Below, in pieces: positions 3,626 through 7,536 of a stretch of DNA of 60,245 nt; the first letter of the stretch is position 1, and every line of letters starts with the position of its first letter. This DNA comes from Candidatus Spechtbacterales bacterium (lineage in GTDB: Bacteria > Patescibacteriota > Minisyncoccia > Spechtbacterales > 2-12-FULL-38-22). The notes beneath the pieces are model-generated. The model saw only the letters and a program-made list of their open reading frames with translations, was not told the DNA's origin and did not search any database. The stretch is taken from NCBI GenBank assembly GCA_040879145.1, contig JBBDKX010000038.1, positions 1 through 60,245 on the forward strand, in the 5' to 3' direction. The position numbers and the translations under genes were made by a program.

Positions 3626-5080
3626 TTACAAATAGTATTTCCTCTTTAGCTCCTCATCAACTGATTGCTCAAACTTATTCTGTTTATCCTTGGCCTTTTT
3701 TTCTAATTTTTCAAGCTCTTTGTCTGTCTTGGCACTTAAGTCTTTAATTTTTTCAAGTTGATATTTACGTTCATTCTTTTTTGGTTCGTCCAAAACCTCG
3801 TCAAGTAAAATATTTAATATACGCCCTATTTTCTTACCAGGCTTAACATCCGCAGCGCGCATAACATCCTCTCCATCTACCTTTAACATTCCCACTGAAA
3901 TAGGGTCTTTTTGCACCCTATCTATCATATACCTAAAGTGACGCAGTCTGTATGGTTCGGGTTTTGGAACTCCCGAACCCATTCTGTCGCATATCCTCAC
4001 CTTTACCAGATCGTCCATATTATCAGATCCAACTTTAGCTACCAGGCGCCTAACAGAGCTTTCGGTAACCTCTCCAACCTCATAATAAAAGAGGTGATAC
4101 CGAACCAAAAGTACCACTTTTTCTGTGAATTTTTTTGAGAACTTCAGGCGCTTTAAAAGCTTTTCAGCAATCTTGGCACCAACAACCTCATGGCCATAAA
4201 ACGTAGAGTCTTTTCCTTCGCCACGCTTAGTTTGTGGCTTCCCTACATCATGTAAAAGTGCGGCAAATTTCACGTGAAGCGGATAATCATGCTCTGCCGC
4301 CCACTTTAAAGCATACAAGTTGTGCTCAAAAACAGTGTATATGTGGTGTTTGTTTTGTCCCACACCTATGCCTTTTGCTATTTCCGGCAAAACAAGCTCT
4401 AAAAGCCCAGAATCCTGCATAAAAAGAATGCCGTTATGGGCGTATTTATTATCTATCATCTTAATCAATTCGTCTTTAATTCTCTCTTCCGCAACATTTT
4501 TTATCCAATGAGCATTCTCTTTTATCGCCTGAAATGTTTCACCCTCTATTGTAAAATTTAACTGTGTTGCAAAACGCAAAGCGCGCATAAGGCGCAGGGC
4601 ATCTTCAGAAAAACGCTCATTAGGGCTGCCTACCGTACGCACAACCCCTTCCTTAAGATCTTTTTGACCTTCGAAAAGATCTACAATATCATATGCTTTC
4701 TTTTTTGGCCTAAGAGCTAAGGCGTTTATTGTAAAATCGCGTCTTTTTAGGTCTTCTTCTAAGGATTCTGTAAAATCAACACTATCGGGATGGCGCTTAT
4801 CAGAGTATTTTGCCTCAGACCTAAAAGTGGTAACCTCTACTATTTTTAAACTTTCGTCTTTCGAATCTGTCTTTACGGCAACAGTTCCGAAATCATTCTC
4901 ATACACACTATCAGGAAATAATTTTTGTATTTTTTCGGGCTTTGCGCTTGTTGTTAGGTCCCAATCTTTCGGAGTTCTATCTAATAAAATATCGCGCACG
5001 CATCCGCCTACGACATAAGCTTCAAATCCCGCTTCTTCAAGGGTTTTTATAATATTTTTTACTTCTTTAGGTAACTTCAT
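3626..5080 (-). CDS. cca: CCA-adding tRNA nucleotidyltransferase with C-terminal HD domain
   Basis: It has the GGCVRD motif, RRDFTINA, and the HD-domain motif LLHDVGKP. The ATG at 5078-5080 (MKLPKEV) is preferred; an alternative ATG lies at 5107. Confidence 0.85.
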   Translation of the reverse strand: MKLPKEVKNIIKTLEEAGFEAYVVGGCVRDILLDRTPKDWDLTTSAKPEKIQKLFPDSVYENDFGTVAVKTDSKDESLKIVEVTTFRSEAKYSDKRHPDSVDFTESLEEDLKRRDFTINALALRPKKKAYDIVDLFEGQKDLKEGVVRTVGSPNERFSEDALRLMRALRFATQLNFTIEGETFQAIKENAHWIKNVAEERIKDELIKMIDNKYAHNGILFMQDSGLLELVLPEIAKGIGVGQNKHHIYTVFEHNLYALKWAAEHDYPLHVKFAALLHDVGKPQTKRGEGKDSTFYGHEVVGAKIAEKLLKRLKFSKKFTEKVVLLVRYHLFYYEVGEVTESSVRRLVAKVGSDNMDDLVKVRICDRMGSGVPKPEPYRLRHFRYMIDRVQKDPISVGMLKVDGEDVMRAADVKPGKKIGRILNILLDEVLDEPKKNERKYQLEKIKDLSAKTDKELEKLEKKAKDKQNKFEQSVDEELKRKYYL

Positions 5081-5131
5081 TGTTGTTTTAAAATAAGTCT
5101 TACACATTTAGACTACCCCAAAACATCTCTA

Positions 5132-5160
5132 TTGTCTATTGGTGTGAATTATGGTATATT
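5132..5160 (+). promoter_or_regulatory. Sigma70-like promoter TTGTCT-17-TATATT with TG-extended -10
   Basis: TTGTCT is at 5132-5137, followed by a 17-nt spacer and TGGTATATT with the hexamer at 5155-5160. This places a start about 20 nt upstream of the tRNA-like fragment at 5185. Confidence 0.45.
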
Positions 5161-5184
5161 TCATGTGAAAAGTGGCCACAAAAA

Positions 5185-5230
5185 GCGCCCGTAGCTCAAC
5201 CGGATAGAGTGGTCCGATGTTCATCGGACA
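5185..5230 (+). pseudogene. 5' tRNA fragment (acceptor and D arm of tRNA-Arg type, aberrant anticodon arm, no T arm)
   Basis: 5185-5211 (GCGCCCGTAGCTCAACCGGATAGAGTG) equals the first 27 nt of the intact tRNA at 5509 with 1 mismatch. It is followed by a stem TCCGA/TCGGA with loop TGTTCAT, which lacks U33. No T arm or 3' acceptor strand follows. Confidence 0.6.
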
Positions 5231-5254
5231 GGTGGTGGAGTTTTAATACTTATC

Positions 5255-5518
5255 ATGAAAACAGGGATTTATATTCTAAAATGCTCTAACGGTAGATTTT
5301 ACATAGGTAGCACAAATAACATTGATAGAAGAATAGAAGAACATAAAAATGGACAGGTTATATATACAAAAAATATTTTACCTGTTAAACTACTCCTGTT
5401 TCATCCCTGCACAACAATAAAAGAAGCAAGGCAAATAGAATATAAACTAAAAAGACTAAAAAACCGCACAATTATAGAAAAGATAGTTCAGGATGGAACT
5501 ATAAACATGCGCCCGTAG
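5255..5518 (+). CDS. Small GIY-YIG nuclease family protein (URI/UPF0213-type)
   Basis: 87 aa. GIYILKCSNGRFYIGSTNNIDRRIEEHKNG followed by KLLLF...EARQIEYKLKRL matches the GIY-YIG core. The last 10 nt, including the TAG stop, lie inside the tRNA-Arg gene. Confidence 0.85.
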   Translation: MKTGIYILKCSNGRFYIGSTNNIDRRIEEHKNGQVIYTKNILPVKLLLFHPCTTIKEARQIEYKLKRLKNRTIIEKIVQDGTINMRP

Positions 5519-5582
5519 CTCAACTGGATAGAGTGTCTGGCTTCGGACCAGAAGGTTGGGGGTTCGAATCCCTCCGGGCGTA
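5509..5582 (+). tRNA. tRNA-Arg (anticodon TCG)
   Basis: Hand-folded cloverleaf: acceptor GCGCCCG/CGGGCGT, D arm GCTC-AACTGGATA-GAGT, anticodon arm TCTGG-CTTCGGA-CCAGA, T arm GGGGG-TTCGAAT-CCCTC, discriminator A. No encoded CCA. Confidence 0.85.
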
Positions 5583-5630
5583 CTAATAATTAAAACACCT
5601 ATTTCAGTAGGTGTTTTAATTATTAGTACG
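5579..5630. terminator. Long palindrome (20-bp perfect stem, extendable to about 24 bp) overlapping the tRNA-Arg 3' end
   Basis: ACTAATAATTAAAACACCTA (5582-5601), loop TTTCAG, then TAGGTGTTTTAATTATTAGT (5608-5627). The flanking GCGT/ACGC extend the pairing. Confidence 0.7.
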
Positions 5631-5690
5631 CGGGATTCGAACCCGCGGAGGGGTCCCGCCAGAGGCGGGCAGGCGGGGAACCGTTGAGTA
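5628..5690 (-). pseudogene. tRNA-like 3' fragment (canonical T arm, no matching 5' acceptor strand)
   Basis: The minus strand reads ...CCCGCCTCTGGCGGGACCCCTCC GCGGG TTCGAAT CCCGC GTA. The T stem-loop is canonical, but I could not fold an acceptor stem or D arm. The segment is GC-rich. Confidence 0.4.
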
Positions 5691-5773
5691 TACATAAGTT
5701 TTTAAAAACCCTTTGAATGGGGTTTTTAGTTTTCCCCAATAAAAAATATTGATTTTGTGCTACTATTAACTTA

Positions 5774-7084
5774 ATGAAATTGGGCATTAAATTTTTCTTA
5801 ATTTTTGCAGTGTTGGTATCTGTTGCCGGTTTTTTTGTTGTAGAAGATGTCTCTGCTCAAGGGCAGTATTATTGCCAAATGAGTACTGCGGGGTGTGTAT
5901 TAGACCCGGGAATATCTCCAACCTGTCAACAGGGATATACATATGACTGCGGTCAATTCACAACGCTTTCCTCTTGTTTTAATAATCCACACACTTGTGA
6001 AATAGCAGGCAATCAATTTTCCTGTAATTACGATTTCGGAAGAAGTACATGCAATATAGACAGTAACAACAGCACGTGTGACACAGGTAAATCAGATAAT
6101 TGTTCCAACTGGAATAATGACCCCGCAGGATGTGAAAACGCTTTTGGCACATGCGTAGTAGGAATTCCCCCTGGTGAGGACTGCATGGTAACCTTCCCTG
6201 ACCCATGCTACGACGGAACAGGAGAACACTCATGCATAGCTTATGATGATTCCGGTACGGTTGGAATTTGCCAGCCAAATCCTTGTGAATCTACGGCACA
6301 GTGCCATGGAGGATATGAATGCCTTAGTGGAACATGTCGCCCGGGAGGTTCAAAGGCCCCGCTTGGAGTAAATGAAAAGACATGCATATGGGATACGCTT
6401 TATGGAAGGTGTGTACCTACAGGTACATGCAGGGCGGGGTATGAGGGTTACACTTTTGCTGAATGTAGTGCGTATCCCACCGAAGAAGAGTGTACGGCAG
6501 TACCTAACACAAGCTGTGATTTAATAGCTGAGTTCGGTGGAGAAGACTGTTTCGCGCGTTGCATAGAAGATCCCAATAATACCACCGCAGACCCTGTACG
6601 ACCAGGGGCAAACGACATATGCAATGCTAAGTGTAAAACAAATTTCAAACGATGCGATACAGACGGGGATTGTAAGTTTTTAATAGGGGAGGGTTGGAAG
6701 TGTATTCCAAACGATGTCACAGGAATGGGTATATGCCAATTTGAGCCTGATAAGATTTGTAATGCCGGAGGATTATTGCCCTGTGGAGGAACAGGATGCC
6801 CCTGCCAGCTTTGCGATGTATTTATTGTAATAAACAGAGTGGTAGATTTGCTTCTCTTTACAATAGCGCCCATACTTGTATCTATAATGGTTATAGTGGG
6901 TGGATTCTTTGTTATGACATCACGCGGTGCCGGGCAATTACGAAAAGGTAAGGAATTTATAAAGTGGGCCATTCTTGGATATTTATTAATGCTAACAGCA
7001 TGGGTAATTGTAAACAGCATACTTACTGTATTAGATCTGGCCACATGGGTTGGCGCAGGGGATTGGTGGGACCCAAACTGTTAA
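5774..7084 (+). CDS. Secreted Cys-rich protein with C-terminal TrbC/VirB2-like two-helix pilin module
   Basis: It has a signal peptide MKLGIKFFLIFAVLVSVAGFFVVEDVSAQ and about 40 Cys by hand count. The C-terminal hydrophobic hairpin has a short basic loop (GGFFVMTSRGAGQLRKGKEFIKWAILG), like the modules at 26635-32598. Confidence 0.55.
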   Translation: MKLGIKFFLIFAVLVSVAGFFVVEDVSAQGQYYCQMSTAGCVLDPGISPTCQQGYTYDCGQFTTLSSCFNNPHTCEIAGNQFSCNYDFGRSTCNIDSNNSTCDTGKSDNCSNWNNDPAGCENAFGTCVVGIPPGEDCMVTFPDPCYDGTGEHSCIAYDDSGTVGICQPNPCESTAQCHGGYECLSGTCRPGGSKAPLGVNEKTCIWDTLYGRCVPTGTCRAGYEGYTFAECSAYPTEEECTAVPNTSCDLIAEFGGEDCFARCIEDPNNTTADPVRPGANDICNAKCKTNFKRCDTDGDCKFLIGEGWKCIPNDVTGMGICQFEPDKICNAGGLLPCGGTGCPCQLCDVFIVINRVVDLLLFTIAPILVSIMVIVGGFFVMTSRGAGQLRKGKEFIKWAILGYLLMLTAWVIVNSILTVLDLATWVGAGDWWDPNC

Positions 7085-7167: not shown

Positions 7168-7203
7168 AAGGAGTGTCTTCACTATAAATATCAAATTTCC
7201 GGT

Positions 7204-7250
7204 CCGCCCATAGCTCAATTGGCAGAGCAGTTGCCTCTTAAGCAATTGGT
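7204..7250 (+). pseudogene. 5' fragment of tRNA-Lys (acceptor 5' strand, D arm, anticodon arm; no T arm)
   Basis: 7202-7250 is identical over 49 nt to 7404-7452 of the intact tRNA-Lys. The two copies diverge exactly after ...GCAATTGGT. Confidence 0.8.
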
Positions 7251-7405
7251 CGGGCCCTCTAATTAAAAACTGGGGTGCATTTGACGGGATTTATTTTGCA
7301 AATATTCTAGGCGTTTGGAGTGACGCGATGTTGAAACATCGTTAGCGACAAAGAACACTAAAGATTGGCAAAATAAACCCGCCCTTTTAAAACCCAGTTT
7401 CCAGT
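7251..7405 (+). other. 155-nt structured insert between the tRNA-Lys fragment and the intact tRNA-Lys
   Basis: It contains nested complementary segments. AAACTGGG (7267-7274) pairs with CCCAGTTT (7393-7400). CGGGATTTATTTTGC (7285-7299) pairs with GCAAAATAAACCCG (7368-7381) with one bulged A. There is an inner hairpin at 7325-7342. No ORF is present. Confidence 0.4.
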
Positions 7406-7478
7406 CCGCCCATAGCTCAATTGGCAGAGCAGTTGCCTCTTAAGCAATTGGTTCCAGGTTCAAGTCCTGGTGGGCGGA
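7406..7478 (+). tRNA. tRNA-Lys (anticodon CTT)
   Basis: Cloverleaf: acceptor CCGCCCA/TGGGCGG, D arm GCTC-AATTGGCA-GAGC, anticodon arm GTTGC-CTCTTAA-GCAAT, T arm CCAGG-TTCAAGT-CCTGG, discriminator A. Confidence 0.9.
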
Positions 7479-7536
7479 CTGGGAATTGGGTTGGGGGCAC
7501 AAATCAGACTTTTGCCGGATTTTCATGTGAAAGATA

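Follow-up and report, generated by a model that had tools for sequence, protein, structure and literature searches.

How can a gene for a nuclease occupy an essential RNA gene without an intron? The question is raised by a tRNA-Arg locus in a 60,245-nucleotide (nt) stretch of DNA from a Candidatus Spechtbacterales bacterium (contig JBBDKX010000038.1 of assembly GCA_040879145.1), which was analyzed over its full length and is hereafter called the window. In this locus, an open reading frame (ORF) of 87 amino acids (aa) for a GIY-YIG nuclease stands between a short copy of the 5' end of the tRNA-Arg and the intact tRNA-Arg gene. Our answer, which we hold with slightly more belief than doubt, is that the locus harbors a small selfish cassette residing in tRNA genes of bacteria of the candidate phyla radiation (CPR)/Patescibacteria and always leaves one intact tRNA. 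The same module, i.e., a hairpin-marked pseudo-tRNA, a nuclease ORF, and an intact tRNA, was found at tRNAs of many identities, with more than one order of its parts.

The tRNA-Arg Locus

ARAGORN and Rfam report two tRNA genes in the window, one for tRNA-Arg(TCG) and one for tRNA-Lys(CTT). At the tRNA-Arg(TCG) gene, a promoter, a 27-nt copy of the tRNA 5' end, the 87-aa GIY-YIG ORF, and the intact tRNA follow one another in this order:

5132-5160, plus strand: promoter-like site with TTGTCT, a 17-nt spacer, and a TG-extended TATATT; the native tRNA-Arg promoter (consensus scan; kept in relatives)
5185-5211, plus strand: pseudo-tRNA 5' fragment, matching tRNA-Arg positions 1-27 in 26 of 27 bases
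5212-5229, no strand: perfect palindromic hairpin GTCCGATG-TT-CATCGGAC, in the place of the anticodon arm of the pseudo-tRNA
5230-5254, plus strand: degenerate remnant of variable loop, T stem, and T loop, AGGTGGTGGAGTTTTAAT (5230-5247), and a short spacer up to the ATG (alignment to the intact tRNA)
5255-5518, plus strand: gene for an 87-aa GIY-YIG nuclease, Slx1/UPF0213-like (Pfam PF01541, E-value 7e-15)
5509-5583, plus strand: intact tRNA-Arg(TCG), CCA not encoded (ARAGORN; Rfam, 67.8 bits); same sequence as the tRNA-Arg of relative L084

The hairpin, written as GTCCGATGTTCATCGGAC, has a motif that occurs once in the whole window, and the counterpart of the remnant AGGTGGTGGAGTTTTAAT in the intact tRNA-Arg is AGGTTGGGGGTTCGAAT. 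The ORF ends with ATG CGC CCG TAG, which covers tRNA positions -2 to 10, and its stop codon TAG (5516-5518) coincides with U8-A9-G10 of the tRNA-Arg. All sequence features that had been described earlier from the bare letters (the sequence-only reading) were recovered at, or a few bases from, the coordinates given there. Thus, the intact tRNA, placed at 5509-5582 with ARAGORN proposed as a check, was called by both programs with its end at 5582 or 5583; the 5' copy has the single mismatch that had been counted; and the stop codon of the nuclease gene lies inside the intact tRNA as claimed. Since an independent Logan contig, assembled from a public sediment run (X1, 58.8x), shows no differences over 5020-5536, the duplication is not a mis-assembly.

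Empty and Occupied Sites among Relatives

Syntenic relatives were found through the neighboring gene for the CCA-adding enzyme, which puts the organism among Spechtbacterales-like Patescibacteria. The gene order common to these relatives is CCA-adding enzyme, tRNA-Arg, pilin-like gene, tRNA-Lys, rpsO, NYN, and polynucleotide phosphorylase (PNPase). The state of the tRNA-Arg site in four of them is as follows, with the aa identity of the CCA-adding enzyme in brackets where available:

L081 (76%): same promoter and leader, then directly a single tRNA-Arg
L082 (72%): same promoter and leader, then directly a single tRNA-Arg
L084 (85%, the closest): same promoter and an identical intact tRNA-Arg, with a different insert in between
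L084, 100-200, and L083, 3780-3925 (minus strand): second type of insert in the tRNA-Arg

The promoter and leader shared by L081, L082, and the window read ...TATGGTATATTTCATGTGAAAA.... Because L081 and L082 have this promoter directly before a single tRNA-Arg, the 324 extra bases of the window, i.e., the pseudo-tRNA and the ORF, represent an insertion. In the alignment, the pseudo-tRNA fragment at 5185-5211 occupies the place of the native tRNA-Arg of the relatives. These two single-tRNA sites are the empty sites that the sequence-only reading had suggested looking for in related genomes, and they support its proposal of a nuclease-associated insertion in a tRNA gene with an intact copy left or regenerated.

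Among close relatives, the tRNA-Arg gene is found in three states, i.e., empty, with the GIY-YIG cassette, or with another, non-coding insert. A homing element is expected to fill a site in some relatives and to be missing from it in others, as is the case here. The insert in L084 consists of a 13-nt tRNA 5' copy and ~100 nt of structured non-coding DNA unrelated to the cassette, and the insert in L083 is homologous to it. The general build of this second type is a 13-nt 5' copy (GCGCCCGTAGCTC or GCTCCTGTAGCTC), a structured element of 100-130 nt reading CCTCCTAYGCCC...GGGCTTCGGAAGGGC...GCTCAGAATATTTTCTGAGC, and the intact tRNA; a comparison of both inserts with the GIY-YIG cassette gave no similarity.

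Nuclease ORFs at tRNA Genes in Other Genomes

A scan for related loci, limited to one genome per species, returned 122 relatives, and 80 loci with 84 copies of the ORF were kept. A tRNA on the same strand starts between -25 and +200 nt from the stop codon in 66 of the 84 cases. Most of these tRNAs (55 of the 66) start within -25 to +30 nt, and 25 start at exactly -9, which is the modal offset and that of the window. Eight ORFs begin 0-26 nt past the 3' end of a tRNA. The tRNAs beside family ORFs represent 13 identities. An exact upstream copy of tRNA positions 1-10 was found for 30 of 54 ORF-adjacent tRNAs vs. 1 of 24 other tRNAs in the same loci. Thus, the survey by which the sequence-only reading had proposed to look for partial tRNA copies beside small GIY-YIG ORFs elsewhere was strongly positive.

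The order of the parts may also be reversed. In such mirror-image loci, an intact tRNA is followed by the ORF and then by a 3' pseudo-tRNA, the stop codon being the TAG of the D-loop 'GGTAGAGC' with a hairpin directly after it. At L047 (1120-1700), a tRNA is split into two halves, which bear one hairpin each and flank the ORF and an intact tRNA of a different sequence. A difference in sequence between the intact tRNA beside the ORF and the flanking hairpin-marked fragments is seen at L047, L130, and L149. In such cases, the whole tRNA gene may have arrived with the cassette instead of being regenerated from that of the host. In a Yanofskybacteria genome (L023, 3246-3319), the cassette precedes a tRNA with the anticodon TTA according to ARAGORN, a possible UAA suppressor.

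A Conserved Hairpin in the Pseudo-tRNA

The hallmark of the family is a hairpin of the form NYCCGAYG-(2-5 nt)-CRTCGGRN. Its position became apparent when the pseudo-copy was compared with the neighboring tRNA over 16 loci of the window type:

tRNA positions 1-26: 99.5% identity to the neighboring tRNA
tRNA positions 27-43: replaced by the hairpin
tRNA positions 45-56: 77% identity to the neighboring tRNA

The anticodon arm is replaced independently of the tRNA, i.e., at tRNAs for Pro, Asp, Val, Gly, Ala, and Arg. The sequence-only reading had called the anticodon arm of the window aberrant. The arm is not decayed, but a conserved, covarying hairpin common to loci at many tRNAs. The contrast between 99.5% and 77% identity on either side of it could reflect concerted evolution or recency. 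Other loci carry one to three hairpins of the form NNCCGAC-loop-GTCGGNN exactly after tRNA position 10 or 15. Among the 66 loci in which the ORF precedes the tRNA, 19 belong to class A (anticodon arm), 8 to class B (position 15), and 11 to class C (position 10).

The motif has 220 matches in 421 kb, 180 of them within 200 nt of an ORF, compared with 15 matches in reversed-sequence controls. At least one hairpin is present at 78 of the 84 ORFs, and hairpins are found downstream of the ORF in 36 of 84 loci. Whilst the core of the stem is invariant, its two outer pairs covary (CG, TA, GC, AT), 171 and 157 of 193 being of the Watson-Crick type. Stem mismatches show no strand bias (21 G-T vs. 18 A-C), and without an excess of G-T a hairpin structure at the RNA level is not favored. 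The hairpin is likely the recognition structure of the cassette. Searches of Rfam 15, with gathering and E-value thresholds, yielded only tRNA matches in the window, 20 related loci, the relatives, and a class-B leader. That the hairpin is an intron of a functional tRNA was considered and rejected, since its removal in silico gives a complete tRNA in 2 of 81 loci.

The Reverse Search and Signs of Movement

The association was also approached from the other side, by searching metagenome contigs with an ORF-blind DNA pattern for the hairpin pseudo-tRNA. This search gave 86 matches with a fully palindromic stem, 65 of which had enough flanking sequence. A family GIY-YIG ORF lies on the same strand within 700 nt of 37 of these 65 hairpin pseudo-tRNAs; 26 have no ORF and touch an intact tRNA, and the other two have neither an ORF nor an adjoining tRNA. 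The 26 ORF-less copies could be solo footprints or non-autonomous copies. Matches with a non-palindromic stem that lack an ORF fall in GC-rich coding DNA and are chance matches.

For 33 of 63 family proteins, the nearest neighbor by sequence sits at a tRNA of the same identity, where 7.4 are expected and the maximum in 2000 permutations was 18. Yet, protein pairs with 64-74% identity occur at different tRNAs, i.e., Thr/Phe, Thr/Val, Ile/Asn, and Asp/Ala. The cassette is also commonly found in tandem, nested, or without its ORF.

The Nuclease

The GIY-YIG domain fills the entire 87 aa of the protein, which has no DNA-binding domain. With its GIY..YIG motifs and the conserved Arg and Glu of the active site, the protein belongs to the GIY-YIG superfamily. 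The catalytic residues Y6, Y16, R26, H30, and E62 are invariant among 33 homologs of ~50% identity, and the enzyme is, therefore, probably active. In a comparison with PDB, the profile of these 33 homologs matched BH0048 (1zg2; E-value 2.2e-17), EF2693 (1ywl; 3.1e-12), and SLX1 (2.5e-5), and far more weakly I-TevI (6e-3) and UvrC (0.27). Judged from these profile matches, the protein is a minimal Slx1/UPF0213-type nuclease. The homologs are 85-109 aa long, as is typical for UPF0213 proteins that consist of the domain alone, and nearly all of them are from metagenome-assembled genomes (MAGs) of CPR bacteria. It belongs to the 'minimal' Slx1-like lineage of GIY-YIG proteins that has been described before (PMC1564403). 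SLX1 is a structure-specific nuclease, which would make the conserved hairpin a natural partner for the protein.

Other affiliations were examined. A homing endonuclease of the I-TevI/Seg type was rejected, because the catalytic domain alone fills the 87 aa and the profile favors Slx1/UPF0213. The match to NCBIfam TIGR01453 covers residues 2-34 only, with 31.6 bits vs. a cut-off of 56. Full-length family members were absent from the viral contigs searched, the matches there being to the generic N-terminal GIY-YIG motif, and a phage origin was discarded, as the matches in viral contigs, PHROGs, and PADLOC are all at the level of this motif.

A Model for the Cassette and Its Difficulties

If the locus is a selfish cassette, it would be expressed within the tRNA precursor from the tRNA promoter. 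Cleavage by RNase P at the 5' end of the tRNA would then remove the stop codon of the ORF, whilst in the mirror arrangement processing of the tRNA 3' end would leave an mRNA that starts almost at its AUG. Either processing route would keep the levels of the nuclease low. The nuclease probably recognizes the hairpin, or a cruciform, with its core CCGAYG/CRTCGG and would break the DNA beside it. Recombinational repair, with the duplicated tRNA segments as homology, would then place a copy of the cassette in another tRNA gene, cognate or similar, and the same recombination could precisely excise the cassette. On paper, a Campbell-type or gene-conversion event between a cassette composed of tRNA positions 1-26, hairpin, positions 44-58, and ORF and a cognate tRNA gene would reproduce the layout of the window exactly. 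We propose that a whole tRNA is carried or regenerated by every insertion and that the host, therefore, loses nothing. With an intact tRNA retained, the nuclease gene would need no intron to reside in an essential RNA gene.

Several observations weigh against this explanation. First, the remaining tRNA keeps any target that lies within the tRNA; thus, simple homing by cleavage of the empty tRNA gene leaves immunity unexplained. Second, the model does not explain how hairpins arrived at three precise positions of the tRNA. Third, no homolog with more than 56% identity was found among 5.8 billion proteins, and there is, therefore, no sign of a recent spread of the copy in the window. Fourth, neither an empty allele nor a circular junction was found in the source population, in the contigs of runs X1-X5, although contigs drop rare variants. 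Fifth, some contigs with the cassette are labelled Planctomycetota, Omnitrophota, or Gammaproteobacteria, among them several 'Gammaproteobacteria' MAGs of the third-party annotation (TPA) section; cases with a non-CPR label are found among the cassette loci L006, L011, L016, L027, L042, L044, L053, L075, and L076. These may be mis-binned CPR contigs or instances of real transfer beyond the CPR. Finally, the absence of a G-U strand bias fits, but does not prove, a hairpin that acts at the DNA level or is strictly of the Watson-Crick type.

A more far-reaching version, to which we give limited credence, is that the hairpin and the Slx1-like mini-nuclease constitute a new structure-guided system of DNA mobility. 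The substrate cut by the nuclease would be a hairpin or cruciform extruded from its graft in tRNA-like sequence, and host repair would move the ~0.3-kb cassette between tRNA genes, with the universally conserved D-arm and T-arm sequences as portable homology.

Alternative Explanations

The alternative that survives best, improbable as we consider it, is a non-mobile module that benefits the host. The nuclease would then have RNA as its target and serve to process tRNA precursors, to control their quality, or to regulate, and the hairpin leader would be a substrate in cis or a decoy. The tight packing of the ORF in tRNA units, with its stop inside the tRNA or its start at the tRNA 3' end, and the preservation of 99.5% identity to the tRNA in positions 1-26 of the leader agree with such a function. 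A published note reports a prokaryotic protein in which an Slx1-like domain is joined to a TrmH-like tRNA methyltransferase and suggests a role in RNA metabolism (PMC1564403); this fusion also speaks for a host module. However, some close relatives have the module at a given tRNA gene and others lack it there, it affects one or few tRNAs per locus, the identity of which varies, and degenerate footprints and tandem copies exist. Moreover, the stems on the sense strand are not enriched in G-U pairs, and a copy of the 5' strand of the acceptor in the leader would compete with tRNA folding rather than aid it.

It is quite unlikely that the locus is a type III toxin-antitoxin addiction module with the hairpin repeats as RNA antitoxin and the nuclease as toxin, the tRNA link being merely an insertion preference. 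Most loci do have one to three conserved hairpins immediately upstream of the small nuclease gene, and the invariant core of the stem suggests recognition by a protein. But hairpins are also located 3' of the ORF (in the 36 of 84 loci mentioned above) or stand alone by tRNAs without an ORF, and no terminator separates them from the ORF. Furthermore, the protein family is specific for DNA structures, the PADLOC matches are weak and limited to the GIY-YIG motif, and the partial duplication of the tRNA would be left unexplained.

We attach very little probability to a remnant of an integrase-driven element, or of a group I intron with a homing endonuclease, that once interrupted the tRNA. Partial tRNA repeats around an insert are a hallmark of tRNA-targeting islands, GIY-YIG genes are frequent in group I introns, and the N-terminal match to TIGR01453, weak as it is, points the same way. 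However, the insert comprises just 324 nt, an integrase is absent, and the repeat is the 5' rather than the 3' part of the tRNA. Neither the window nor the 20 related loci contain an intron or ribozyme known to Rfam, removal of the hairpin restores a complete tRNA in only the 2 of 81 loci mentioned above, and the profile sets the protein apart from I-TevI.

A chance tandem duplication of the tRNA, with one copy decaying at random beside an unrelated ORF, can practically be dismissed: tandem tRNA duplications are common, but the architecture, the junction offsets, and the hairpin recur in ~80 independent genomes and ~60 metagenome contigs, and loci at different tRNAs share one sequence in the supposedly 'decayed' anticodon arm.

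Other Features of the Window

The promoter claimed by the sequence-only reading at 5132-5160 stands, on the strength of its conservation. The consensus scan found 7 sites where 3.3 are expected in this AT-rich DNA and, taken alone, proves little, but the site is kept in four relatives, L081, L082, and L084 among them, immediately 5' of the tRNA-Arg. In the window, this native promoter would now read into the pseudo-tRNA, the ORF, and then the tRNA-Arg. Its -10 box is overlapped by a palindrome:

5159-5171, no strand: palindromic motif TTTCATGTGAAAA, invariant in the alignment with relatives

This motif may be an operator or another promoter-associated site. A second copy of the -10-overlapping palindrome is found in the window at 7521-7532, upstream of rpsO. 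Several promoters, i.e., those of the tRNA-Arg, rpsO, and the pilin-like gene, have a palindromic TTTCAYRTGAAA(A) next to their -10 box, and this motif is also present in L081, L082, L084, L085, and L087. It may be the binding site of a regulator shared in this lineage.

Two structures lie downstream of the tRNA-Arg:

5560-5644, no strand: long palindrome, the terminator hairpin of the tRNA-Arg, with arms reaching the T arm and 3' end of the tRNA
5632-5694, no strand: GC-rich segment with a minus-strand T-arm-like sequence GCGGGTTCGAATCCCGC (5630-5646) and a CCCGCC/GGCGGG hairpin

The core of the palindrome consists of two 24-nt arms (5578-5601 and 5608-5631) that are 100% complementary, and pairing extends to 5560-5644 with a 5-nt bulge (folding energy -62.6 kcal/mol, z -12.5). 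It aligns with the simple terminators of the empty sites in L081 and L082. By this alignment, it is the terminator of the tRNA and part of the tRNA locus, not of the insertion. A second strain in run X1 (20.8x vs. 58.8x) carries the same palindrome with the 6-nt center changed at three positions (5598-5650). The center of this second strain is nearly the reverse complement (TTTCAG to CTGAAG) and looks like a flipped loop. The palindrome of the main strain is missing from the Logan contigs.

The GC-rich segment lies between two terminators and is ~60% identical to, and in the same position as, part of a longer segment in L081 (4700-4830, minus strand), where the counterpart measures ~135 nt and has a long closing helix. 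As L081 has no insertion yet has both the terminator and the GC-rich segment, these two predate the cassette or are independent of it. Thus, the sequence-only reading was right about the presence of a 20-24-bp palindrome and of a minus-strand T arm (5630-5646), but neither is a product of the insertion. The idea that the T-arm fragment is part of a tRNA, a transfer-messenger RNA (tmRNA), or the RNA of the signal recognition particle (SRP) was dropped, as it found no support from ARAGORN and Rfam; its resemblance to an upstream hairpin of L072 is merely that of GC-rich stems. The segment is a candidate small RNA, for which Rfam gave no match.

The second tRNA gene of the window has a partial copy as well:

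7202-7250, plus strand: exact 49-nt copy of the 5' part of the tRNA-Lys (2 leader bases and positions 1-47; equal to 7404-7452)
7251-7403, plus strand: 153-nt non-coding spacer forming one long imperfect hairpin (z -3.6)
7406-7479, plus strand: intact tRNA-Lys(CTT) (ARAGORN, Rfam)

Rfam scores the 5' copy as a tRNA without T arm (31.6 bits), and no ORF follows it. The apex of the spacer hairpin, CGATGTTGAAACATCG, resembles the core of the cassette hairpin, and the spacer is probably a footprint or a non-autonomous element. A search for a relic of the GIY-YIG gene in the spacer gave no significant match (E-value 0.22). Among the relatives, the tRNA-Lys site is empty in L081, L083, and L087, and decayed pseudo-copies with hairpin remnants are found in L082 and L085.

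Between the two tRNA genes (5774-7084), a secreted protein of 436 aa is encoded, which is very rich in cysteine and has a C-terminal domain like that of pilins of type IV secretion systems (T4SS). Its orthologs vary from 137 to 542 aa, and their Cys-rich part is highly variable.

Significance and Comparison with Known Systems

If the selfish-cassette explanation is correct, selfish nuclease genes can colonize essential RNA genes without splicing, by a partial duplication of the target that leaves one intact copy. The widespread but functionally unassigned bacterial Slx1-like (UPF0213) nucleases would thereby be linked to a defined partner, a conserved hairpin with a CCGAYG core. For CPR bacteria, in whose rRNA genes insertions are known to abound (PMC11270868), the cassette would represent a new kind of mobile element. 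Should the more far-reaching version, a structure-guided system of DNA mobility, hold, nuclease genes would have a third route into essential genes, next to introns and inteins, and the enigmatic bacterial UPF0213/YhbQ family would gain its first biological role. In practice, the cassettes create tRNA pseudogenes and partial duplications, which can mislead tRNA annotation, disrupt assemblies, and pass for integration sites. A conserved hairpin this short and an enzyme of 87 aa lend themselves to direct tests in vitro. No description of the association of GIY-YIG nuclease, tRNA, and hairpin was found in Rfam or in the literature searched, which largely excluded subscription journals.

The intronless homing gene segB of phage T4 is likewise a GIY-YIG gene located among or beside tRNA genes without an intron. 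A T4 seg gene was found to be inherited together with flanking tRNA sequence (PMC2330249), and seg genes and the cassette are alike in being present or absent between relatives. However, Seg proteins are over 200 aa long, have C-terminal DNA-binding domains, and belong to the I-TevI/UvrC lineage, whereas the cassette protein has 87 aa and is of the Slx1/UPF0213 type. Moreover, seg genes lie between genes, without partial duplication of the target and without a known hairpin module.

Elements that integrate in tRNA genes by means of tyrosine integrases, i.e., phages, integrative and conjugative elements (ICEs), and islands, also leave an intact tRNA and a partial direct repeat, the element supplying the displaced part. 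They replace the 3' part of the tRNA, leave the 3' fragment far downstream, are kilobases long, and encode an integrase. In the cassette, it is usually the 5' part that is repeated, the insert measures ~0.3 kb, and the nuclease is the sole gene. An element of this kind was, therefore, rejected for the window, where the 324-nt insert has a single 87-aa nuclease ORF and the repeat is the 5' part. The sequence-only reading had called the locus a 5'-side mirror image of such elements; the repeat of the 5' part is real, but without an integrase in the insert the likeness is one of analogy only.

Group I introns that carry homing genes and interrupt bacterial tRNA genes resemble the cassette in that a selfish nuclease gene resides in a tRNA gene, the function of which is kept. 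In the cassette, function is preserved by duplication rather than splicing, a ribozyme is lacking, and the hairpin copies are not complete tRNAs. A group I intron in the tRNA-Arg gene was rejected, as Rfam finds no intron and the ORF is followed by a full tRNA instead of a 3' exon.

With the UPF0213/Slx1-like proteins (BH0048, EF2693, and E. coli YhbQ) and SLX1, the cassette protein shares the family and the domain-only architecture. SLX1 cuts branched and stem-loop DNA in a structure-specific manner, which fits a conserved hairpin as partner, but it requires SLX4 and a RING domain for activity. An association of this family with tRNA genes or hairpins was not reported in the literature searched.

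Integron attC sites, repetitive extragenic palindromic (REP) sequences with their REP-associated tyrosine transposases (RAYT), and the ends of the insertion sequences IS200/IS605 likewise combine a short conserved stem, the outer pairs of which covary, with a loop that varies, most likely for recognition of folded DNA. They also share with the cassette the small size of the mobile units and the existence of ORF-less derivatives. These systems use tyrosine recombinases or HUH transposases, whereas the cassette has a GIY-YIG nuclease, and their hairpins are not, as those of the cassette, grafted at fixed positions of a tRNA-like sequence. Thus, the locus fails one defining feature of each of the closest known systems, and the cassettes apparently form an undescribed family of tRNA-targeting selfish elements in CPR bacteria.

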